NCBI GenBank assembly: GCA_021735655.1
Contig: JAIPGM010000005.1
Location: forward strand, 45,461-109,460
Source of the DNA: Candidatus Omnitrophota bacterium
GTDB lineage: Bacteria > Omnitrophota > Gorgyraeia > Duberdicusellales > 4484-171
DNA length: 64,000 nt
Direction: 5' to 3'
Shown: positions 48,262-59,768 of the stretch, one piece after another
Layout of the letters: each line of letters opens with the position of its first letter
Position numbering within the stretch: the first letter of the stretch is position 1
The notes under the pieces: generated by a model
What the model saw: the letters and a program-made list of their open reading frames with translations, nothing else
Databases searched by the model: none
Told to the model about the DNA's origin: nothing
Position numbers and translations under genes: made by a program

Positions 48262-50010
48262 TTAAAAACTAACTTTGTAAGTAACCGATCCGCCAAGTTC
48301 GTAAAAGTCTTCTTTAAGCTGAGTTTCTAAATCAACCAAAAGAGTGGTATTTTTCTTGTTGAAGAATTCAAAACGGGAACCGACATTAAAGCTTGAGGGT
48401 GCCGGTCGGTAGCCTGAAGTTTCAAAAGAAGCCCCACCGCCCTCAAAACTGGCTAAAGACTGCTGTTTTTCATTCACCACACTGTAGAAATAACGAAAAC
48501 GAAGCTCGGGAGTGAACAGCATCTTCTCGCTCTCAAAAACCTTACTCAACCTAAGACCTCCGCCCAGCTGTAAAGTTTGGTAATTCTGAGACTCAACGCT
48601 GAGATTCAGCGCTCCGGCTCCAGTCTCAGTATAATCATCGAGCTCGAGATTAGTGTAGCTTAAAGCTAAAAGCGGAATGATCTCGAAATTCTTCTTTTTC
48701 AACTTATAGCCGCCTTCCAGGTAAGCTGAGAGCTGCTGGCCATCGTAATCAGCATTAGCCGTCCTTTCGATAGAACCGACAGTTACCTTTCTCGAATTAT
48801 TATATTCACTGTAGCCGTAAGTCAGCACTGCATCAAACAGATAAGGCTTATCCGGATGGCTATATTCTCCGTAAAGGCCGGTCTGATAACTTGTTATCCG
48901 AGTGCGCTCTTCGTTATCTTTTGACCTGATCTTACCTTCGCTAAACCCTTGGTCTATACCCAAGCGTAAAGAATTATTCAAAAACCCGTGGTCAAAGCCG
49001 ATAACATTACCCCAAAGCTTAGCCCGGTAACCCTTACTTGCACCACGCTCACCCTGCCGGGCATAGCCACCATAAGACTGAAACCAGATATCGTTATTAA
49101 AAGAATCCTCTAATGAGTCTTCCTCAAGGCTATCTTCCTCGATCTTTGAATCTTGTAAACGCAATACCGTGGTCCTGACAAATTTATCCAGGGAACCGTT
49201 TGAGGTATTGATTACTCCCCTGTTAGCAGAAAGGCCCATGTCGTTCTCGGCCGAAGCTACGCCACCACCAGATAAAGCTTCGAGAGTATTAAGAATCGTG
49301 GTCATGTCCGAAGAAGGATTGCTTATATTATCGAGAACCCGACCGACAGCAGCTGAATTAGAGCTGGAAGCCTGGCTTTCAAACCCAGAGGTTGACCGGT
49401 CAGCAGTTAAAACCAAGTTGCCTCCGGAATTTGACGCGCTAAATGACACCCGAGAGTTACTTGAGGTAACTGTAGTCGGAGCATTCCCTATTCCTGAACC
49501 ATTAGTATCGATAATAGTAAAGGTTGCATTTGACGGTATATAGATATCATTGCTAACTGTAACCGCCACTGTACTTGCTGTATTTACCACTGCTGCGGCA
49601 CCAGAAGTTATCCTGCCTGAGGTTGAAGGCGTATCAACGGTCAGGTTAAGGGTAGTCCCTGATCCTTGAGTATAAATGCCGGTACCGCCAAGAGTAAGAG
49701 TATTGGCTCCCAAGCCCAAACTGCCGGCATTATCTAAAGTAAGGTTTCCGGTAATTGTGCGGCTGCCAGTAAGATTTAAAGTTCCGCCGTCTCCTGCCGA
49801 ATCTACAGTAGTAGTTACGGCCGCCAGGTTATGCCCTAGAAAAAGTGTACCCTCCCCGGGCAGACGTCTGACTGCGGCTCGATTCGCTATGAATTCCGCA
49901 TAGAAGTCACCAGACCCAGCAAAAATCACGCCAGAATACGCCTGATTCCGACGGATTCCGAGGATCCGAAACAAAGCCCTGCCTTTGCCCTTGAAGCTCA
50001 AGGGTGCCAA
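48262..50010 (-). pseudogene. Autotransporter-like outer-membrane protein (Gly/Thr/Ser-rich passenger + C-terminal beta-barrel ending in F); N-terminus lacks a signal peptide, possibly 5'-truncated next to the IS
   Basis: C-terminal ~280 aa has alternating amphipathic beta strands and a terminal aromatic. Passenger has TLNLTG repeats. First 60 aa are non-hydrophobic and lie in the higher-GC DNA adjoining the transposase. Confidence 0.5.
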
Positions 50011-50139
50011 AATAGCCTTAAATACGCCTTAAAATAATGAGAATTTTTGAGGGGTTTTATGCCCAGAAAGGGCTATATGCTGTTTAGCGGGGTGCAGTTA
50101 ATATGCGACCGGTTTTTAAGGTAGGAAAAGTCGCCTAAC

Positions 50140-51295
50140 TTGTTGTAGAATGGACACTTACTCAAAACAACACTTTTTGCCATGAAAGGAGCTTTTGTAT
50201 CATGAACCACACCCAATCTTATACCATAAACGGCTGTATATTCCAAGAGTTTTTACTGCTTCTGGGCAGGGTTGTCCACAGTGACCTGATCCGGCAGATG
50301 GAGTACCTGAAAGTGGAGAATGAGGTTCTGCGGACCAAATGCCCGAAACGGATAACCACAAGCCCGGCCGAGAAACGTAAGCTCATCAAATACGGCCTTG
50401 CCTGCAGGGGCAGAATAAAAGGCATTATATCCATCGTAAGCTATTCTACCTTCAGGCGCTGGGTAAATGGCGATATCCGCAATAAATATAAGCCTTCCAA
50501 GCAAGGCACGCCCAGAAAGACCACACAGGAAATAATAGACCTTATAGTACGCCTTGCCCGGGAAAACTGCGACTGGGGCTATGGCCGGATAATGGGCGAG
50601 TTAAAGAAACTAAACATCATCAGACTGTCCCGGAATACCATAAAGGCCATAATGCGCCAGAACGGCCTTGATCCGGCACCAATAAGGGCCCATGACTCAT
50701 GGGATGCCTATATAAAGCGCCATTTCGAAACCTTATGGGCTTGTGACTTCTTTACCAAGACCATCTGGACAGCCATGGGGCCCAAGCTATTCCATGTATT
50801 ATTCTTCTTGAATATCAGAACCCGGAAGGTCCATATAGCCGGTATAACAGAAAAACCTAAAAAGGAATGGGTGATGGAAGCGTCAAAGACGGTATCGTTT
50901 CTATTCAAAGATAAGACCAAGAAGCTCCTTATTCGAGACGGTGATGCTAAATTCCCGAAAGAGTTCAATAGCCTTTTCAAAGACTGTAATACAAAAGTCA
51001 AAAAGATACCGCACCGGTCACCGAATCTTAACCCTTATGCCGAAGGCTTCGTGGGAACCATAAAAAGGGAATGCACGGATCACTTCTTCGTGTTCGGCGA
51101 ACGTCACTTCGAATACCTTGTCCGGGAATACGTCAAATACTATAATACCAAACGTCCGCATTCCGGCCGGGATAACCGGCCCCTTGAATATCATTCGGAG
51201 AAATCAACCGGCAAGCTCAAATGCGACTCACGCCTGGGTGGGATGATTAAGCATTATTATTGGGGGTAACGGAAGGTCACAGTAACTCATCCTCA
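50140..51295 (+). mobile_element. IS element (IS481/IS3-like, single DDE transposase ORF); ends approximate
   Basis: Transposase ORF with a local rise in GC relative to flanks. Terminal inverted repeats could not be defined by eye. Confidence 0.4.
50202..51269 (+). CDS. DDE transposase with N-terminal HTH/leucine-zipper and rve integrase core domain
   Basis: AAAGGAG RBS. rve-type motifs (..WACDFF.., RDGDAKF, NTKRPHSG). 355 aa. Codon usage and GC differ from neighbours. Confidence 0.8.
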   Translation: MNHTQSYTINGCIFQEFLLLLGRVVHSDLIRQMEYLKVENEVLRTKCPKRITTSPAEKRKLIKYGLACRGRIKGIISIVSYSTFRRWVNGDIRNKYKPSKQGTPRKTTQEIIDLIVRLARENCDWGYGRIMGELKKLNIIRLSRNTIKAIMRQNGLDPAPIRAHDSWDAYIKRHFETLWACDFFTKTIWTAMGPKLFHVLFFLNIRTRKVHIAGITEKPKKEWVMEASKTVSFLFKDKTKKLLIRDGDAKFPKEFNSLFKDCNTKVKKIPHRSPNLNPYAEGFVGTIKRECTDHFFVFGERHFEYLVREYVKYYNTKRPHSGRDNRPLEYHSEKSTGKLKCDSRLGGMIKHYYWG

Positions 51296-52101
51296 TTAAT
51301 GTAACGAAATATAGCAGTGTCATTCGAAGCTTTCATTGCGTATTCGTTTTCTAATCGATATCGTGCCACACACTGGAGAAAAGAACCAATGTCATGAAGA
51401 TGGCGAACTTGATCCCATGAATCCAACTTTAAATCAATGCCATAACCAGGCTTTCTAACAATATGAGCAATGCTGTGTCTAATCGAATCCTTCACGTATT
51501 CTCCGGCACTCACATTATTAGTATTTTGATCATGAAGAAAAATTCTATTGGCTGTAAAACGAGTTATAGTTTCACGCATATACTCTAACTCTCGAGGCCA
51601 ATTACCAACAAGATTATTAATATAAGCAACGGCCACACTTTCATCTGCGCTGGGATATACCAAACAATGCCAGAAAAAAAGAATTTGCAAATAAATATTA
51701 TTTGAGCTATTTGCTTCCCGATATAAACGGGCTAACTGGATTTGCTCCGGTGTACTCAAAAGAGATATTGTATAGAATTCGTCCATGGATTCACTGGCAT
51801 TTATCGACCTTTTGACGGAAAAACGAATGTTAACCTTGTTTAGTTTAGCGTCTACCTGCGAACTTATCCCGGAGTGCGTTATAACCCGAGCATTATTAGC
51901 AAAGGTAAAAGCGGAAAGAAATTCAGTCATCAGCTCAAACATCTTCGGTTGGCTACTGCCCTTGGGAATCTTGCATACCAGATCGTCAGTTTCATTGCTC
52001 TTATAATGAGGCACATATTTAAAATCAACATCCTTATAACGAAAATAATATACATCCTTGCGGAAAGCTATCGATATGTCTACTCCGATTGCATAAATCA
52101 T
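51277..52101 (-). CDS. Hypothetical protein, fourth gene of the SIR2 operon
   Basis: 274-aa ORF, 34 nt after the preceding gene, same strand. No recognised motif. Confidence 0.45.
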   Translation of the reverse strand: MIYAIGVDISIAFRKDVYYFRYKDVDFKYVPHYKSNETDDLVCKIPKGSSQPKMFELMTEFLSAFTFANNARVITHSGISSQVDAKLNKVNIRFSVKRSINASESMDEFYTISLLSTPEQIQLARLYREANSSNNIYLQILFFWHCLVYPSADESVAVAYINNLVGNWPRELEYMRETITRFTANRIFLHDQNTNNVSAGEYVKDSIRHSIAHIVRKPGYGIDLKLDSWDQVRHLHDIGSFLQCVARYRLENEYAMKASNDTAIFRYINEDELL

Positions 52102-52135: not shown

Positions 52136-53029
52136 TTATTGTTCGATAGAAGGCTTTTTGGCTTTAAAATAGTTCAGTAATAAGTAATAACGCAGTGCCA
52201 ATTTTTTATCTCCGGCTTCTTTTCTTTTTTTGTATTCTGATTCCACAAATTTAGATGCTTGGCCAAGTCCTTCTTCAAATTTCTTTGCCTGTTCTGAGTT
52301 TTCATTTATACTTTGTAAGAATTCCTTACCGAGATAATCTAATATTGACACACCATCTAAATCCCGGACTATCATTTTTAGACAACTCGTTGCCATAACC
52401 TTGCACAGCTCGACATCCTCATTGGTTTGTGCGGGTAATTGCGGATGCTTATTTGCTAACGTCGCCAAATAATTTAACAGTTCCCGCCCGATAACTATTC
52501 GTGGATATTCCGCAATTTTGCTTTCCAATGCATATGCCTTATATAAGGCAAGTCCATAAATTTCGCCATTAACCAATTCAGTTCCCAAGCCCACTTCTAT
52601 ACCGGCTCGAAATGCCTTTTTCATTGCCAAAGATAAAACCATCATGCCTCCACACGCTAACAGTGTGCCAAAGACACCATTAATTGCATGTGAGTGATAT
52701 TTATCCGTATGCAGACAAACGTAAGCTTGAATACAATCTGAAAAACGTTGATGCTTCAAATTGCTTTTTAGCATTTCTTTGAATTGCTCCATTTTTTCCG
52801 GAGGCACTTTAACCGAAGGCTCCCTTTCTTCTGTATAAGCATCAAAGAAATCCTGGAATCCATTGCGCAAAGTTTCGACGAACATCGCTGTTTGTTTATG
52901 GGCTTCTACTAAGCGTGGATGATTATCTTCAAGGGATTGGCCTTCAAGCCCTTGAAAAGCTTCTTTCTGGCCTAAAATATCGATAAAAGCTACAAGATAA
53001 TAATAGTAATTTATGTTATCTTTTGCCAT
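52136..53029 (-). CDS. Nucleotide-cyclase/GGDEF-like palm-domain protein (third gene of the SIR2 operon)
   Basis: YLVAFIDILGQKEAF resembles the metal-binding strand FaDIvGFT of class III cyclases. FRAGIEVGLGTELVNGEIYG..AYALES resembles RiGIhtGpvvaGviG..VNtAsRlES. The central segment ACGGMMVLSL occupies the position of a GGDEF-like turn. Confidence 0.45.
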   Translation of the reverse strand: MAKDNINYYYYLVAFIDILGQKEAFQGLEGQSLEDNHPRLVEAHKQTAMFVETLRNGFQDFFDAYTEEREPSVKVPPEKMEQFKEMLKSNLKHQRFSDCIQAYVCLHTDKYHSHAINGVFGTLLACGGMMVLSLAMKKAFRAGIEVGLGTELVNGEIYGLALYKAYALESKIAEYPRIVIGRELLNYLATLANKHPQLPAQTNEDVELCKVMATSCLKMIVRDLDGVSILDYLGKEFLQSINENSEQAKKFEEGLGQASKFVESEYKKRKEAGDKKLALRYYLLLNYFKAKKPSIEQ

Positions 53030-53045
53030 AATACGTCTCAGCCCA

Positions 53046-55826
53046 CTACTTGTTATATTTCTTATAAATTTCTGTTAAAAACTCAAACCCTGCTCTAGCA
53101 TATTTATCACAAATAGAATTTGCAATTTCATTTTTAAAACCAGCTAAATAAATTTTTTCAACAATAGATTGAATATTTTCTTGCTTATACCACGGAATAC
53201 TTTTTTCTATCATTATTAAAAATACATTCCCTACGTCTTTTGGGTTAACGTCTGCTAATTTATCGAAATACTCAAGTAAGAATGAACTATGGTAACGCTC
53301 TTCTACATATTTAATTGACTGCTTCAACCAATCCACCTGCTCTGTTTGTAATTGATCAAGAAATACCGCGAGTAGATTCAAATCGGAAAGGATGTCTTTG
53401 TTTTTGTCTTCTTTTCCTTTTGTTCTGTTAAAACAATACCGCCAAAATTCAAATATTCTTTCCTTTTGGTCGCAATCTAATTGCGCATCCCTATGAGCCC
53501 AAAAAAGACTGATCACCTCTTCAATATCATTTGGGTCCCATTTTTCTAAAATATATTTAAACAAACTGTCTTGGCCATCTATAGTCTCTTGCCCCCTTAA
53601 GTAGGATATTGTTACATTTTCTACAATTCGTCTTTTCGCTTGATCGTTCGAAAATTTTGTATCAAGCGCACGCCTTAGATGACCGTTATCTTTTAATAGA
53701 TTGTAGATAACAGCATAAACGGTATTGACATAAGAATATCCTTGCATAGCGCATCGCCAATGCTTTTCTTCAGCAGGAAAGATATTATTAATATTCGAAG
53801 TAACCCAATTTTTCTGCAAATAATACAAATTAGGCAAATAAGCACCAGATAGGCTTGAGAATTCGAAGTTTCCTTCCTTTGTTCTTTCAATCTCCCGACT
53901 AAATAGTGGCGCTACTGTCTTCCAGAAATCCTCTTTTTCTTTTATACCTTTATCAGGCAATTTTTCGAAATCACGGTACCGCCTAAGGACATAACTTTTA
54001 AAACTCTCTAGCACATGACCCTTTGTGGTATTAATCGCTTCGGTAAGCGCGTCTTCATCTTTACCACTTGCTGTTGATTCTTGTTTATCAAGCAGGGTCC
54101 GAATAATATTGTCTATTCTCTTATAATTATTCTCAGTAAGATTCAAATCGTCATTCTGAATCCCATTCTTGATCAAATCCGAGATAGCCGCAGGAATCCA
54201 ACTTTTCTTAGGTTCAAGGGGAAACTGACTCTCCTTCTCTTTCCCGTCCCACAATACATCATCGCAGACGATAGCTTGACAAAAGTCTAAAATCTTGTCC
54301 CAATTAATCTCTTTTTTATCCCGCGCAAGTTCTTCAAACGCCTCTATTACATAATACCAATATTCGTAACTAGACTTCTTGAACTCAATGAGACAATTTT
54401 CAAAAAATCCCTGTTTTAGCTTAATCGCTTCTTTTAAAGACTGGCCTGCTTCTCGTATCGCAGTTTCTCCAAAGCGGTTTTTACCTTTGAAGTTACCAAG
54501 GAAAGTAATAATTTCGTTAATGCTTCCCTGTGCCAACAATTCACTAGCTGAAAATAGAGACTCATCCCCCCATGATACAGGTCCAATATAACTTAAGAAT
54601 TCTGGATGTTCCGGCTTATAATCAATCCCTTTAAAATATTTCTCCTCTACATCATTCGGTATTGAATATCCCGAAACTTTAATAGCATATAGCCATCGCC
54701 TGCGAAGTATCGCATCCAATTTTTCCTTATCAACATCTTTTCTCCAGTCCCCGGACAACTGAACAACATCATTCATCAATGAATTCTGAAGATCTTGAGA
54801 AAATTGTTTAAAGTGGCGTGTTATCAGCTTATACAGTTCGTGGTGATAATTACTTTCGAGGAAAATAGTTTTACCGGTATCGCGAATGATTTTTTCACTA
54901 GTGGTTTTGTATTTATCAAACAACTGTCCTGTAATATACAATGAAAAACGTCTAATAATATGCTTGTCTGACCTAAAGCATGATTCAATAATAGTAGACG
55001 CTTCCTGTGAGGACGCATAGGCAAGAAACACATCTCTTAATCCAGAAACTAAAATATGTCGATATTCATCTCTGCTTATATTCTGTTCGCTATCTTCGAT
55101 TGCTGGACGCCACATATAAGAATATGCGTCATCCTTTTCCGTCACAATATGCTCAATTTTCTTCTTAAGAATTTCGACAATTTCGGCACCATATTTTTCG
55201 CCCAAATGCGTAGCATTGATCTTAAATAATTCCTGCAAACTATGGGCACCAAGGCTATGCCGATTTTCAATCCTGATGAAGTCAAGAATGATTTCTATAA
55301 GTCGGCTAACTTTTTGTAACTCCTCTGGTTCTTTCAATAAGTTTGGCAAAAGGGTTTTGCCAATCTCCAGCATTACCATTGAGGCATCAAACTTACTGTC
55401 AAGCCAATCAGCAATAAGCTCAATATCTTTTATTTCCACGACATCTGACGGCAAGAGTGCCATGATTTTAACAAAAGACTGCCACGTACGCCAATTATCT
55501 GCTTTTTTGGTCTTATCATCGGGACGAGTCACCTCACGAATAATTGACATTAACTTTCGGACATGCTCTTTATTTCCAGATTTCGAGCATTCTTTGGATA
55601 CCTTTTCTAAATATGTCAAAGCAGGCCAATATGGAATTGAGAAGAAACCTTTGTTTTTTTCCGACTCTACTGGAGAAGGATTATTTGTTGAACCAAAATA
55701 ACCATGATCTTTAAGCAAAGTAAGATATTCAACCTTCGACAATTCATTAAAGACCTGTGCTCGGTATTCAGCCCCTTTTGCCATGTAATCTAAAAGACTT
55801 TTTTGCTCTGGAGTTATATTCGTCAT
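53046..55826 (-). CDS. Large (926 aa) all-alpha-helical repeat protein, second gene of the SIR2 operon; no NTPase motifs
   Basis: No Walker A/B. Helix-rich composition throughout. Start overlaps the SIR2 stop (ATGA). Confidence 0.5.
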   Translation of the reverse strand: MTNITPEQKSLLDYMAKGAEYRAQVFNELSKVEYLTLLKDHGYFGSTNNPSPVESEKNKGFFSIPYWPALTYLEKVSKECSKSGNKEHVRKLMSIIREVTRPDDKTKKADNWRTWQSFVKIMALLPSDVVEIKDIELIADWLDSKFDASMVMLEIGKTLLPNLLKEPEELQKVSRLIEIILDFIRIENRHSLGAHSLQELFKINATHLGEKYGAEIVEILKKKIEHIVTEKDDAYSYMWRPAIEDSEQNISRDEYRHILVSGLRDVFLAYASSQEASTIIESCFRSDKHIIRRFSLYITGQLFDKYKTTSEKIIRDTGKTIFLESNYHHELYKLITRHFKQFSQDLQNSLMNDVVQLSGDWRKDVDKEKLDAILRRRWLYAIKVSGYSIPNDVEEKYFKGIDYKPEHPEFLSYIGPVSWGDESLFSASELLAQGSINEIITFLGNFKGKNRFGETAIREAGQSLKEAIKLKQGFFENCLIEFKKSSYEYWYYVIEAFEELARDKKEINWDKILDFCQAIVCDDVLWDGKEKESQFPLEPKKSWIPAAISDLIKNGIQNDDLNLTENNYKRIDNIIRTLLDKQESTASGKDEDALTEAINTTKGHVLESFKSYVLRRYRDFEKLPDKGIKEKEDFWKTVAPLFSREIERTKEGNFEFSSLSGAYLPNLYYLQKNWVTSNINNIFPAEEKHWRCAMQGYSYVNTVYAVIYNLLKDNGHLRRALDTKFSNDQAKRRIVENVTISYLRGQETIDGQDSLFKYILEKWDPNDIEEVISLFWAHRDAQLDCDQKERIFEFWRYCFNRTKGKEDKNKDILSDLNLLAVFLDQLQTEQVDWLKQSIKYVEERYHSSFLLEYFDKLADVNPKDVGNVFLIMIEKSIPWYKQENIQSIVEKIYLAGFKNEIANSICDKYARAGFEFLTEIYKKYNK

Positions 55827-56812
55827 TTGTTTAATAACCGCCTTATGACATCTTTTTCTTCTTCAAAATTAGGCTTATTGACTTTAGCTTTTAGAACAGC
55901 TGCCCATTTAATAATGATCTCTTCCAAATGAACGTGTCCTTTTTTGTCGATGTTATAGTCAATCAATTTTATGCCACAATGTCTTTCAAAATATCCCTTA
56001 AGATGCTTATAGGCAGCGTTATCCCTGCTCATACGTGGATATAGCCAAAAATGCCTTGGTTCTTCAACCCTCGGGGAATTGCTTTTTCTAACAATGAACT
56101 CCAATATTTCTTCTTCTTCCAGTCCATATCCAATAAACAAGACAATCTTCCGCGAAAACAAATCATTTAAAAAATCTATAACAAATCTATTCATATAATG
56201 ATCCATATAATCTCTGGTGGTCATAATCATGGTTTCTTTGCTTTTTACGCTTCCATGAAGATGAATAACCGAGCCTGGCTGATCTAGTCGCGCAGATGTT
56301 AAATCCTCTTTCCTGAAAAATACAGAAGTAGGAGAGGTAATTCCAGAGTTTCCCAGAGAACTGTCATCACCTTTTGAACTTAATATTTTATTATCAGCGA
56401 GCTTATCAAGGCAATCATCATAATTAGTCGTTACAAAAACAGTCCCTATCGAATACAAAGCATCGTATATCGCCGTTTTTACCGCTATTTCTTTATCCTG
56501 AAAAATTAACCTTCCATAATCATAATCGATGCCTTTTGCTTTGTAGTTATCAAAAAAAATAGAGAGTTGAATCTTGGGGTTTAAGGCTAAGAGAGAAGAT
56601 TTTTCTGAATATTCGATGTGCCCTTCTTTATAGAGAATGTCAATCGCCCGTCTTCCAAGCTCAACCCATGAAGGGTACCCCAATAATCTAGATACTCCAT
56701 TGCCGACAAACAAAATTAATTTGCCGTTTTGAGCTGCGTCGATAATAGACGAATGATCTTCTATGTTGGGAATAATTCTTGACGCAGGATTTTTATCTTC
56801 TATCGTCATCAA
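55823..56812 (-). CDS. Stand-alone SIR2_2-family (defence-type sirtuin-like NADase) domain protein
   Basis: Motifs in the canonical order: KLILFVGNGVSR (GAGxS equivalent), VFVTTNYDDCLD, VIHLHGSV (catalytic His), IVLFIGYGLEE. 329 aa. Confidence 0.75.
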   Translation of the reverse strand: MMTIEDKNPASRIIPNIEDHSSIIDAAQNGKLILFVGNGVSRLLGYPSWVELGRRAIDILYKEGHIEYSEKSSLLALNPKIQLSIFFDNYKAKGIDYDYGRLIFQDKEIAVKTAIYDALYSIGTVFVTTNYDDCLDKLADNKILSSKGDDSSLGNSGITSPTSVFFRKEDLTSARLDQPGSVIHLHGSVKSKETMIMTTRDYMDHYMNRFVIDFLNDLFSRKIVLFIGYGLEEEEILEFIVRKSNSPRVEEPRHFWLYPRMSRDNAAYKHLKGYFERHCGIKLIDYNIDKKGHVHLEEIIIKWAAVLKAKVNKPNFEEEKDVIRRLLNK

Positions 56813-57157: not shown

Positions 57158-57931
57158 TTAGCACTTTAAACATTTTTCTTTTTTAGTCGACTGCTGTTTT
57201 GAATGTATTCGTTCCCGCGCCATCCGACAATACTCTGGAGAAATATCAATGCCGATATAATTTCGTTTAAGGTCCCTTGAAACAACGGCTGTCGTTCCCG
57301 AGCCCATAAAAGGATCAAGTACAATTTTAGCATTGGTTGATGATACAATTCTTTGAATCAAAGATACAGGAAATGGAGCAGGGTGCCCATTTTTCATTTC
57401 CTGCGTAAATTCCCAAACATCACCGTAGGCATTCGCTTTTTTTGCCAATTTGAAATCCGGTTTAGCTATCAAGTATATAACCTCATAAGTAGGCAAGAAA
57501 TACCCTGCGTTAAAATTAATTCCACCTTTTCTTTTCCAAACAATAATCTGGCGCACAGGAAATTTACTGACAATGTCATGCCGGTCTTGAAGCAAGCCAT
57601 TTTGTACCCGCCATTTATGATTATAAAAAATTGCTCCGTCATTTTTTATTAATCTATACATTTCATCGAGACATTTAATTTGCCATGACACATATTCTTC
57701 ATGAGGCATACAGTCATCATGATGACTGTATCCGTTAATCAAAGCGGCTCTCGACCATTTACCACCGCGACCATCTTTCATACCGTTTCCTGTAGAATTC
57801 TTAAGATTGTAAGGCGGAGATGTCACAGCCAAATCAATCGATTCGTCCGGCATTGCTTTCATTACTTCTAAACAATCACCGCAAATGATCTTATTCAGAT
57901 AATCCTTAGGAAATTTTAGTTTAGCACTCAT
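57158..57931 (-). CDS. DNA amino-methyltransferase, beta-class (motif IV SPPY N-terminal, motif I FMGSGTT C-terminal); N4-cytosine or N6-adenine
   Basis: LAVTSPPYNL near the N-terminus. DPFMGSGTTAVVS near the C-terminus. Confidence 0.8.
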   Translation of the reverse strand: MSAKLKFPKDYLNKIICGDCLEVMKAMPDESIDLAVTSPPYNLKNSTGNGMKDGRGGKWSRAALINGYSHHDDCMPHEEYVSWQIKCLDEMYRLIKNDGAIFYNHKWRVQNGLLQDRHDIVSKFPVRQIIVWKRKGGINFNAGYFLPTYEVIYLIAKPDFKLAKKANAYGDVWEFTQEMKNGHPAPFPVSLIQRIVSSTNAKIVLDPFMGSGTTAVVSRDLKRNYIGIDISPEYCRMARERIHSKQQSTKKEKCLKC

Positions 57932-57955
57932 TTCATTCTTTCGATAACAGGTTAA

Positions 57956-58762
57956 TCAAAACACCTCTTTAACATCATCATATAGATCCGACCACACGCC
58001 TTGCTTGAGCCGAAATTTTGTTCCGTGGTTATGTCCCGTTCGGGCGTCAAAATCAATCAACAAACTTCCTGCCTCTACACAGCACAAGAATTTCTCAAAT
58101 GAAAAACCAGATAGAACAGAAAGGTGTTGATAGCAAAAATACTCATGCCCGTCGTCAATTTTGGCCTCAGCGATAACGTAAAAACAATTCTTTATTTTTT
58201 CGCCAATCGCATACTTCAAATCTTCAAAGCCCCAATAAGGCTCCGGTGAAATCGCTCCCAAGCCAGCTCTTTTTTTAACAGAAGATAGCCATGCCTTGAT
58301 CTCAGGGTCTGCCATATCAGCCTTCTTTGAGTCAAATACGAACTTCAACTTTTTAGCAGTACGATCAACGACTACTGTAAATCCGCGATTTGTAAAACTA
58401 CTAGAGCTGGTGGTAGACCGAAAACTCATTTCAGTTTTGGGGTATTTAAACCCAGCCTGTTTATGTGGCCAACCATATTTTGGTAAAAGAATATTGCTTA
58501 CAATCCGAGCCGCTGTTGGCGATGGTTCAATGTGCTTTAATGTTATAAGCGAAGAAGAATGCGCTCGCTGTCCTTTAAGCTCCCATTCTCGAGCATTAGG
58601 AATCGGCAGATTGTTTTCTGTAATGCCAAGAAGAACTTCAAGCGTGTTGCCAACAGCGCCATCATTTCGAGTGTCTCGTGTTTGTTTTACGCTCTTATGC
58701 CACCCTTTCGATGCGATAGCTTTAATTTCCTTGATTAACTCATCCTTTGAAAATAATTTCAT
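57956..58762 (-). CDS. Type II restriction endonuclease, MvaI/BcnI-like
   Basis: Sandwiched between two MTase genes with 24- and 13-nt spacers. N-terminal pattern MKLFSKDEL..DGAVGNTLEVLLGI.ENN..EWELKG matches my recollection of this family. A candidate ExK (VIAEAK) follows acidic residues. Confidence 0.5.
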   Translation of the reverse strand: MKLFSKDELIKEIKAIASKGWHKSVKQTRDTRNDGAVGNTLEVLLGITENNLPIPNAREWELKGQRAHSSSLITLKHIEPSPTAARIVSNILLPKYGWPHKQAGFKYPKTEMSFRSTTSSSSFTNRGFTVVVDRTAKKLKFVFDSKKADMADPEIKAWLSSVKKRAGLGAISPEPYWGFEDLKYAIGEKIKNCFYVIAEAKIDDGHEYFCYQHLSVLSGFSFEKFLCCVEAGSLLIDFDARTGHNHGTKFRLKQGVWSDLYDDVKEVF

Positions 58763-58775
58763 AATCTCCCTTTCA

Positions 58776-59768
58776 CTAATACCTTTTTTGGGGCGGCTTC
58801 CAGAAATCTAAAAGATATTCAAAAGTTACACCCATTGTTATATAATTGCTTGGCCAGCCAAAAATACCAATGCCATTGACCACATTGGTACGATCCCATA
58901 TTATGACATTTCGTAATTCATAGCCTCTCTTACGGAGTTCCTCAATCAACGAAACGTGAATTGTAATGCGCCGGTTTTCCCACCACATATCCGGAACATT
59001 AATAACGCAATGTGCTTTCTCTCTAAGCAGAGGAAGTAACCCTTCAAAAATATCTCCCATTGCCGTCGTATAGGAATCAATAGCCATTGTGCCTAGATCA
59101 CGCACATCTTGAGAATATTGCTCAACTTTACCCAATTGCTTGTTGTTCCTGTCGCGTCGAGATTTGTTTTGACGGGATCTATTTAAAAGATTTGCGTAGG
59201 GCGGAGATGTCCAGATCAAACTTACAGTATTGGGGGAGAGATATTCTGAAATATTTCTGGCGTCATCCTGAATGGCCATCTGAGCACATGCATTAAACAG
59301 GTTAGGATTCTTTTGGAGCCGCTTAACACATAACTCAATGTATTTTTTTTGGAGATCGAACCCAACGGCATTTCGGTTCAAATCAGTTGCGGCAATAAGT
59401 GATGTTCCACTTCCAACAAACGGGTCAATAACCAATTGTCCCTGATGTGTGAATAATTCGATGACTTTTTTTGCGAGGGATATTGGAAAAGTTGCAGGAT
59501 GAACAGATTTATCTCTTATATCGCGAGTTTCATAAAAAAACTGCCAAACTCCTATTTGGGATTTAAGCCAGTCCTTGGGGCCCATGCAATTAATATGTGT
59601 ATGGCCACAATTACATAAACGCTCGTGCGCCATACCTAGCTTTGTGCCATATAAAGAATCGCCTTCAAAAACGGCCAAGGCTTTTTGCTCTGTTTTACTC
59701 TTATCATTGTGACCCTGATCAATAGATCTTTTGTCAACCGCGCTATGACCAAAACTTTGATTTCCCAT
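58776..59768 (-). CDS. Second DNA amino-methyltransferase (motif I DPFVGSGTS precedes motif IV SPPY)
   Basis: DPFVGSGTSLIAATDL at ~aa 113. IWTSPPYANL at ~aa 187. 330 aa. Confidence 0.8.
   Translation of the reverse strand: MGNQSFGHSAVDKRSIDQGHNDKSKTEQKALAVFEGDSLYGTKLGMAHERLCNCGHTHINCMGPKDWLKSQIGVWQFFYETRDIRDKSVHPATFPISLAKKVIELFTHQGQLVIDPFVGSGTSLIAATDLNRNAVGFDLQKKYIELCVKRLQKNPNLFNACAQMAIQDDARNISEYLSPNTVSLIWTSPPYANLLNRSRQNKSRRDRNNKQLGKVEQYSQDVRDLGTMAIDSYTTAMGDIFEGLLPLLREKAHCVINVPDMWWENRRITIHVSLIEELRKRGYELRNVIIWDRTNVVNGIGIFGWPSNYITMGVTFEYLLDFWKPPQKRY

Follow-up and report, generated by a model that had tools for sequence, protein, structure and literature searches.

Cyclase-fold enzymes are the signal generators of Pycsar (the antiphage resistance system of pyrimidine cyclases) and, through a related palm, of type III CRISPR. 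The pairing that defines Pycsar is a cyclase with an adjacent effector—transmembrane (TM) or TIR—that carries a cyclic-nucleotide-binding (CNB) domain and, to our knowledge, all characterized defense cyclases are paired with a dedicated receptor-effector. Defense-associated sirtuin 1 (Dsr1) is a known self-contained, single-protein NADase defense system. Here, we analyze a 64,000-nt stretch of Candidatus Omnitrophota DNA (the window; coordinates are window positions throughout) that encodes four tightly packed genes in the same direction: a SIR2 open reading frame (ORF), a 926-aa ORF, a candidate cyclase at 52136–53029 on the minus strand (gene 3), and gene 4. An initial annotation, made from the sequence, had compared gene 3 with class III cyclases and GGDEF-type palms and proposed second-messenger signaling with a SIR2 effector.

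We conclude, at a probability of roughly 0.6, that gene 3 is an autonomous, divergent class III cyclase-fold enzyme cassette in a defense island, not a dedicated signal generator for SIR2. It represents a large, unannotated cyclase-fold family in defense islands that, judging from its sequences, is apparently active. The outcome is a correction: The cyclase call was right, whereas the comparative data do not bear out a cyclase–SIR2 system.

Predicted Structure Places Gene 3 among Class III Cyclases

An AlphaFold2 model of gene 3, built on a 45-sequence alignment (predicted local distance difference test score 91.5; predicted template modeling score 0.90), shows a β-α-α-β-β-α-β palm with the topology of a cyclase-homology domain (CHD). 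With this model as the query, every one of the top 50 Foldseek matches was a class III cyclase (best E 8.4e-5, probability 1.00). Structure comparison gave scores of 11.4–11.7 for the Pycsar cyclases 8jsz, 7r65, and 8jsf; GGDEF domains ranked lower, at 10.8 or less, followed by Y-family polymerases and Cas10 at ~9. The predicted fold is clearly that of a class III cyclase-type palm, as the initial annotation had held. The model comprises a divergent CHD at residues ~9–232, with helical insertions at residues 38–86 and 203–218, and a C-terminal helical hairpin at 245–296.

Gene 3 was recognized as a cyclase fold through structure, not sequence. Searches against Pfam, NCBIfam, and PADLOC gave no relevant match, and a Pfam scan of the 45 aligned family members returned neither Guanylate_cyc (PF00211) nor GGDEF, even at E ≤ 10. 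No cyclase was found among PDB sequences, whether by phmmer with the single protein or by hmmsearch with the profile. An hhalign comparison of the 45-sequence family profile with nine genuine cyclase domains (four from PDB alignments, five from annotated plasmid genes) produced a colinear alignment at a probability of 0.2% and E of 0.3, which is not significant. Taken as sequence alone, the by-eye motif matches that first suggested a cyclase are statistically indistinguishable from chance. Weak Pfam RdRP_2 matches also occurred in 6 of the 45 members (best E 4e-4), over gene 3 residues 69–124 (window ~52658–52825) in the β2–β3 hairpin region; they are probably a generic palm-hairpin resemblance.

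The comparison with palm folds, by profile and by structure, that the initial annotation had suggested thus split. Pfam profiles gave no cyclase or GGDEF match at E ≤ 10, whereas structure placed cyclases on top with the Asp positions present. An unrelated fold, or a palm that has lost its catalytic Asp residues, does not describe gene 3, because the structural similarity is strong and both Asp residues are there.

Metal-Binding Positions Are Near-Invariant in an Altered Active Site

Residues were assigned by combining the hhalign path—not significant, but colinear with the structural elements—with the secondary structure of the AlphaFold2 model (DSSP). Conservation was measured over 248 sequences, comprising the 45-sequence alignment and 203 further full-length representatives and including 133 distant representatives.

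Both metal-binding Asp positions, on β1 and at the β2–β3 hairpin, are occupied according to the alignment and the model secondary structure. In the alignment, D17 on β1 pairs with the first metal-binding Asp in FADIVGFT, and it is kept in 246/248 sequences; in the turn that follows, Q21 is kept in 247/248 and K/R22 in 201/248. The second Asp, D98, belongs to an FSD hairpin that the model places between strands 91–96 and 99–105 and that hhalign aligns with IGDAY; it is present in 247 of the 248 sequences, and S97 in 239. Farther along, RAGIEVG...GEIYG...AYALES (141–170) aligns with RIGIHxG...YDxWG...VNxAsRxES across β4, β5, and α4, so that R141 (β4) corresponds to the Arg of RIGIHxG, E156 (β5, GEIYG) to the Asp of YDxWG, and LYKAYALES (α4) to VNxAsRxES. 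R141, G159, E169, and R177 are invariant (248/248), and P176 (247/248) and Y158 (243/248) nearly so. Position 156 is acidic in 237 sequences (E in 216, D in 21), as in adenylyl cyclases.

Other positions vary or depart from the canonical site. The canonical base-specifying pair joins a Lys or Glu four residues before the second Asp to an Asp, Cys, or Thr in YDxWG; here the first of these (position 94) is variable (Q in 144, K in 20, and T in 18 of 248, with others). Position 163, the canonical Asn, is occupied mainly by Y (63), F (55), and A (40), and position 167, the canonical Arg, by E (82), K (25), and A (19). Canonical cyclases place a phosphate-binding Lys at the β7–β8 hairpin. In gene 3, this hairpin (strands 220–222 and 228–230 in the model) carries D223, kept in 245/248, and D225, kept in 240/248.

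These assignments bear out two motif alignments of the initial annotation: FIDILG with FaDIvGFT, including the first metal-binding Asp, and the segment ending in AYALES with RiGIhtG...NtAsRlES, as homologous positions. They do not support its third motif, ACGGMM, offered as a catalytic GG turn; this segment lies in the middle of helix α3 (113–135) and is poorly conserved (G127 in 161/248, G128 in 94/248). The accompanying suggestion, of a degenerate or regulatory palm lacking the acidic residue, fails: It was based on the misplaced turn, the real hairpin, F96-S97-D98, retains its Asp, and the conservation pattern contradicts it. Nor is the palm of the GGDEF type, given no GG[DE]EF motif and no GGDEF match by Pfam in the 45 members.

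Tandem Relatives Argue for a Dimeric Enzyme

Three gene 3 relatives of ~600–640 aa (P0132, P0140, and P0142) carry two tandem copies of the gene 3 module. The C-terminal copy retains the full residue set in all three. Their N-terminal copies carry G, N, and N in place of D98; D, E, and D in place of K22; A in place of E169 (3/3); and A, S, and C in place of D225; two of the three also have E where D17 would stand. R141, D/E156, Y158-G159, P176-R177, D223, and D231-Y232 are retained in both copies. The C1/C2 domains of mammalian adenylyl cyclases show the same one-copy degeneracy, visible in the AC8 and AC9 sequences, and clade A Pycsar cyclases carry two consecutive cyclase domains (PMC11224242).

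Because these residues are jointly lost in just one tandem copy, the pattern argues for a single catalytic center formed by D17, K22, D98, E169, and D225 and for a protein that would work as a CHD-type dimer—an active enzyme, not a dead pseudo-enzyme. An inert nucleotide-binding or scaffolding domain, comparable to the cyclase-like ATP-binding domain of 6yii, would fit the absence of the canonical Asn and Arg, the acidic residue at the β7–β8 Lys position, and the failure to match cyclase sequence models. It is nevertheless improbable, given that both metal-binding Asp residues are near-invariant over 248 diverse sequences and that, in the three tandem fusions, they disappear jointly from exactly one copy, along with K22, E169, and D225, as would be expected of residues forming a single working catalytic center.

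One other fusion was found, a ~210-aa C-terminal extension in the relatives P0092 and P0103 and at locus L047 (2208–3730), which had no Pfam or PDB sequence match. Beyond the tandem duplications and this extension, the family showed no fusion ("Rosetta stone") partners.

The Upstream ORFs Are a Split Dsr1

The SIR2 ORF (Pfam SIR2_2, E 3.2e-20) matches positions 9–283 of the PADLOC Dsr1 model PDLC04166 (E 4.3e-55), and the 926-aa ORF matches positions 310–1225 of its 1227 (E 5.7e-165). The two ORFs are Dsr1 split in two: Between them they supply the N-terminal SIR2 and the ~900-aa C-terminal domain of that protein, and gene 3 has no PADLOC match. A frameshift artifact was considered as the origin of the split and rejected, since many homologs and loci show the same split. 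Homologs of the C-terminal part (Dsr1-C) occur in split form (~925–950 aa, many), fused to SIR2 (1227–1239 aa), and fused to TIR (1092–1103 aa), and a separate SIR2 ORF again precedes Dsr1-C at L119/L120 and L122. Because the same C-terminal part is found fused to TIR instead of SIR2, the NADase domain is swapped on one Dsr1 sensor scaffold.

Four distinct loci with Dsr1-C relatives (39–66% identity)—two where SIR2 is split off, one with a TIR fusion, and one with a 1094-aa form—were searched with tblastn and the family hidden Markov model, and none of the four had a gene 3 homolog within 6 kb. The SIR2, Dsr1-C, and gene 4 proteins had no detectable cyclic-nucleotide sensor domain of the cyclic nucleoside monophosphate (cNMP), CARF, SAVED, or STING type.

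A Large Family without a Fixed Neighbor

At E ≤ 1e-3, the gene 3 family comprises 5404 cluster representatives, of which the stricter cutoff of E ≤ 1e-30 keeps 1009; among the 150 representatives listed, nearly all are stand-alone, single-domain proteins of 270–340 aa. Metagenomes contain at least 425 loci with a relative. The best homologs come from metagenome-assembled genomes of Omnitrophota, and the hosts of the family include Omnitrophota, Thermodesulfovibrionia, Planctomycetota, WOR-3, Aminicenantes, Eubacteriales, and Proteobacteria. On plasmids, the search of a plasmid collection gave three weak matches, all from Acinetobacter (23–24% identity, E ~4e-4, 75% query coverage) and overlapped only partly by an annotated 136-aa hypothetical ORF. 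In phages, a tblastn search of 50,697 records found no match; phrog_23933, a phage protein family of uncharacterized function, was matched by gene 3 and two distant family members (E 4.9e-6 to 4.3e-9), a partial likeness limited to the core region (~residues 81–210). We found no description of the family in the literature on stand-alone cyclases in defense, Dsr1 accessory genes, and MauJ/HEPN proteins.

Neighbors were surveyed at 104 loci, 87 of them distinct, by all-against-all clustering of the three genes on each side of the gene 3 relative. Across the 87 distinct loci, no neighbor family is common to the gene 3 family beyond the clade-restricted Dsr1-C. The largest neighbor cluster is Dsr1-C-like and occupies position −1 in eight loci (L009–11, L025, L027, L028, L033, and L053), whose gene 3 relatives are all 77–81% identical to gene 3; type I restriction–modification (RM) subunits form the second largest. 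Dsr1 was identified in 5 of the 43 immediate upstream proteins scanned. The remaining neighbors are mixed and include type I RM, Shedu, PLD, AbiEii, Mrr, and PD-T4-6 kinase proteins along with housekeeping proteins (MutS and D-Ala-D-Ala carboxypeptidase). Unrelated genes lie upstream of the two closest relatives (L026 at 89% identity, L008/L012 at 88%). Below 73% identity, an upstream Dsr1 was seen in no relative, and most relatives have no SIR2 nearby. At L009 and L025, the ~1225-aa upstream protein matches only the C-terminal part of Dsr1 (model positions 514–1225), with no SIR2 domain detected by Pfam or PADLOC.

These distributions bear on the initial proposal that a cyclic nucleotide made by gene 3 activates NAD+ cleavage by the SIR2 protein, which would constitute a new cyclase–SIR2 system akin to Pycsar, the cyclic oligonucleotide-based antiphage signaling system (CBASS), and type III CRISPR. 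Speaking for it are a cyclase fold with intact metal-binding Asp residues, the tight packing of gene 3 in the same direction as SIR2 and Dsr1-C, the fact that SIR2 is a separate polypeptide in the window, and the repeated presence of Dsr1-C-like genes upstream of the nearest gene 3 relatives. We nevertheless regard the proposal as highly improbable. The SIR2 and 926-aa ORFs make up the known, self-contained Dsr1, whose split and fused forms lack gene 3 in 4/4 distinct loci. The upstream protein of L009 and L025 keeps the Dsr1 C-terminal part with no detected SIR2, other relatives carry TIR, and most gene 3 relatives lie away from any SIR2. No neighbor is conserved across the 87 loci, and none of the cluster proteins has a recognized sensor domain of the types searched.

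A looser connection is unlikely but deserves more weight: Gene 3 could be a facultative third component of Dsr1-type systems in one clade, acting with the C-terminal sensor part regardless of the NADase domain that this part carries (SIR2, TIR, or other); its role might be, for example, that of a regulator, of a guard against phage counter-defense, or of a second effector. At the eight Dsr1-C-linked loci and in the window, the Dsr1-C-like gene lies 3–31 nt upstream (170 nt at L033), and the linked Dsr1-C proteins are only 26–55% identical to that of the window while gene 3 stays at 77–81%. At least six more pairs of Dsr1-C and gene 3 homologs have equal longest-contig sizes (15474, 10013, 7889, 4789, 6202, and 4024), which would place each pair on a shared contig. 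The association is facultative in both directions, however, with gene 3 present in 0/4 Dsr1-C loci, other genes upstream of the two closest relatives (L026 and L008/L012), and no upstream Dsr1 below 73% identity; moreover, defense genes often co-localize without functional coupling. Any facultative link at the clade level would be to the Dsr1 sensor part, not to SIR2 as such.

Gene 4 Is an Independent Neighbor

Gene 4 matches Pfam MauJ (E 1.5e-8) and has a β-rich N-terminal domain and a HEPN-like helical C-terminal domain with an invariant R208-x4-H213. No homolog of it stands beside a gene 3 relative at any of the 104 loci, and its own homologs occur in type I RM and other defense operons without gene 3 in 3/3 contexts. 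Gene 4 was considered as a fixed partner of gene 3 and rejected, because the homologs of the one were not found with those of the other. Gene 4 is a floating gene, independent of gene 3.

The genes downstream of gene 3 in the closest clade differ in family (MauJ-like, a 232-aa family, and DUF5677). Each bears an Rx4–6H motif—RHSIAH, RNAFTH/RNAFAH, or R[IV]SHLLH—which may be chance. Comparison of these differing genes by hhalign did not support homology or a shared HEPN family.

A cyclase/HEPN-RNase pair of genes 3 and 4, in the manner of the type III CRISPR Cas10/Csm6, might be read from the HEPN-like domain of gene 4 with its invariant Rx4H motif and from the Rx4–6H motifs of the differing downstream genes. 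We consider it extremely unlikely: Gene 4 homologs are missing beside all 104 gene 3 loci and present without gene 3 in all three contexts, hhalign gives the downstream genes no support as relatives, no nucleotide-sensor domain was recognized in gene 4, and Rx4–6H motifs are frequent by chance.

Organization of the Locus

The SIR2 and 926-aa ORFs overlap by ATGA, and gaps of 16 nt and 34 nt separate the 926-aa ORF from gene 3 and gene 3 from gene 4 (Table 1). No terminator-like site was found on the minus strand between the four cluster genes. Because of these short gaps and the lack of such a site, co-transcription of gene 3 behind the split Dsr1 and ahead of gene 4 is plausible. The region is a defense island in a genome of ~37% GC. 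It is bounded on one side by an rve-type insertion sequence (IS) element and flanked on the other, on the same strand, by an RM cluster (57158–59768) and a LexA/S24-like gene.

Table 1. Coordinates of gene 3, its sequence elements, and associated genes
Feature	Position	Strand	Description or basis
Gene 3	52136–53029	minus	297-aa stand-alone protein (ORF list)
F15-I-D17-I-L-G-Q21-K22, β1 and next turn	52964–52987	minus	D17, first metal-binding Asp position; codons checked
F96-S97-D98, β2–β3 hairpin	52736–52744	minus	D98, second metal-binding Asp position, equivalent to GD of IGDAY
R141-A-G-I-E-V-G ... E156-I-Y158-G159 ... E169 ... P176-R177, β4/β5/α4/β6 core	52499–52609	minus	hhalign, conservation
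D223-L-D225-G-x-x-I-L-D-Y232, β7–β8 hairpin	52334–52363	minus	Strands 220–222 and 228–230 (model)
ACGGMM, residues 125–130, within helix α3 (113–135)	52640–52657	minus	DSSP of model
SIR2 protein, N-terminal half of split Dsr1	55823–56812	minus	329 aa
C-terminal (presumed sensor) part of split Dsr1	53046–55826	minus	926 aa
Gene 4, MauJ-family protein	51277–52101	minus	274 aa
Downstream genes with Rx4–6H motif	L008/L012 10911–11609; L028 1303–1770; L009 10949–12325; L025 8899–10314; window 51277–52101		
IS-like element, rve-type transposase 50202–51269	49850–51271	plus	ORF list, PHROG transposase matches

On the RM side, translations of the segment 57158–60527 read as two DNA methyltransferase-like ORFs around a 268-aa ORF (likely a restriction enzyme), followed by a LexA/S24-peptidase-like repressor. 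Near the opposite boundary, a 582-aa ORF at 48262–50010 resembles an autotransporter or β-barrel protein; its GC content is 46–48%, against ~37% around it, and its 5′ region contains the left end of the IS.

IS-like copies with sharp ends and 83–91% DNA identity are found in the window, at L012 (11617–13035), and at L026 (9746–11165). Each occupies the same relative position, 7–15 nt past the stop codon of the gene next after the gene 3 homolog, and that gene differs at each locus. DNA similarity among the three loci is limited to the gene 3 ORF and the IS, leaving a variable gene between two conserved flanks; target-site preference or a mobile unit may underlie this arrangement.

Discussion

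The reading we favor for the cluster is a juxtaposition of independent modules—RM, the split Dsr1, gene 3, and the HEPN-like gene 4—because gene 3 has no fixed neighbor and both Dsr1-C and gene 4 are found without it. Several observations weigh against an autonomous cyclase-fold enzyme. Gene 3 has no sequence-level link to any cyclase model, whether through Pfam, PDB, or hhalign. It lacks the transition-state Asn and Arg of α4 (VNxAxRxES), and its β7–β8 hairpin is acidic (D-x-D-G), not basic; with that pair replaced and that hairpin acidic, its chemistry may not be canonical cyclization of nucleoside triphosphates. As a lone gene, it would also form a system without an obvious effector or sensor. 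Finally, of the 11 distinct loci of the closest clade (≥73% identity, upstream visible, window counted), 7 have a Dsr1-C-like gene immediately upstream, more than would be expected from chance adjacency.

Under the autonomous reading, the gene 3 protein would act on a nucleotide as a homodimeric, two-metal cyclase-type enzyme. D17 on β1 and D98 at the β2–β3 hairpin would hold the metals; K22, R141, and R177 could serve as phosphate or transition-state ligands in place of the canonical Asn, Arg, and Lys that it lacks; E156 would be in contact with the base; and E169 and D223/D225 would help to complete an atypical substrate pocket. The enzyme would take a nucleoside triphosphate, or a nucleotide related to it, as its substrate and release a nucleotide in cyclic or some other modified form. 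The altered pocket means that the product may differ from a standard 3′,5′-cNMP. In genomic terms, gene 3 would be a horizontally mobile, single-gene cassette that settles in defense islands and RM operons, and such a lone enzyme might confer a phenotype by depleting nucleotides, by making a signal for an unlinked receptor, or through a guard function.

The family is large and strongly conserved, with intact metal ligands and an altered substrate/transition-state pocket; it stands alone in defense islands across many phyla and was missed by every sequence library tried. This combination points to two possibilities: a new nucleotide chemistry, or a signaling enzyme whose receptor is encoded elsewhere. 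Either, if true, would extend the known repertoire of nucleotide-based immunity.

A more specific proposal can be advanced tentatively, with the balance leaning clearly against it. The family, which numbers 5,400 or more clusters at 50% identity, might consist of unrecognized single-gene, homodimeric cyclase-fold immune enzymes whose noncanonical site (D, SD, R, E, PR, DxD) makes or destroys a nucleotide other than a standard cNMP. The Dsr1-linked clade might then provide a back-up or guard layer for NAD+-depleting defense, for example against phage counter-measures that restore NAD+ or sponge signals.

Comparison with Known Systems

The gene 3 family is absent from Pfam, NCBIfam, and PADLOC, and it is not Pycsar, CBASS, type III CRISPR/mCpol, or GGDEF. 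Its closest structural counterpart is the class III CHD (PF00211; Rv1264, Rv1625c, CyaB, CyaC, and soluble guanylate cyclase), with which gene 3 shares an Asp on β1, an Asp at the β2–β3 hairpin, the Arg of RxGIxxG, the acidic residue at YDxWG, and the xxAxxLES helix; the family also has tandem forms with one degenerate copy, like C1/C2. The two Asp residues of gene 3 are 81 residues apart, against ~44 in class III CHDs, because of a helical insertion. Gene 3 further differs in having no significant sequence match to this class, no transition-state Asn/Arg, a D-x-D-G in place of the basic β7–β8 hairpin, and an extra C-terminal helical hairpin, and it is always a lone ~295-aa domain with no sensor or regulatory domain. 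We do not file it as an ordinary class III member because the Asn/Arg pair and the PF00211 match are both lacking.

PycC has two catalytic Asp residues and forms a head-to-tail dimer (PMC11224242). The Pycsar cyclases compared here (7r65, 8jsz, 8jsf, and 6yii) have the two catalytic Asp in common with gene 3, and the tandem cyclase domains of clade A parallel the tandem gene 3 relatives. In contrast to Pycsar, gene 3 has no conserved adjacent effector, and neither a CNB domain nor a PADLOC match to Pycsar was found in the cluster proteins or neighbors. CBASS is likewise excluded as a home for gene 3, which has a class III palm, not a Pol-β nucleotidyltransferase fold, and no PADLOC match to CBASS.

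With the palms of GGDEF proteins and of Cas10/mCpol, gene 3 shares a homologous core and an acidic residue at the β2–β3 hairpin, and its Lys five residues after the first Asp presumably resembles the DxxxxK of GGDEF domains. It has neither the GG[DE]EF nor the GGDD motif. It shows neither the GG[DE]EF hairpin and PF00990 match of diguanylate cyclases nor the combination of a GGDD palm with a CARF, SAVED, or TM effector that marks type III CRISPR and mCpol systems.

The nearest described system at the locus itself is Dsr1. The two ORFs upstream of gene 3 match the Dsr1 model end to end but are split in two; the model does not include gene 3, whose closest clade often lies directly downstream of Dsr1-type genes.

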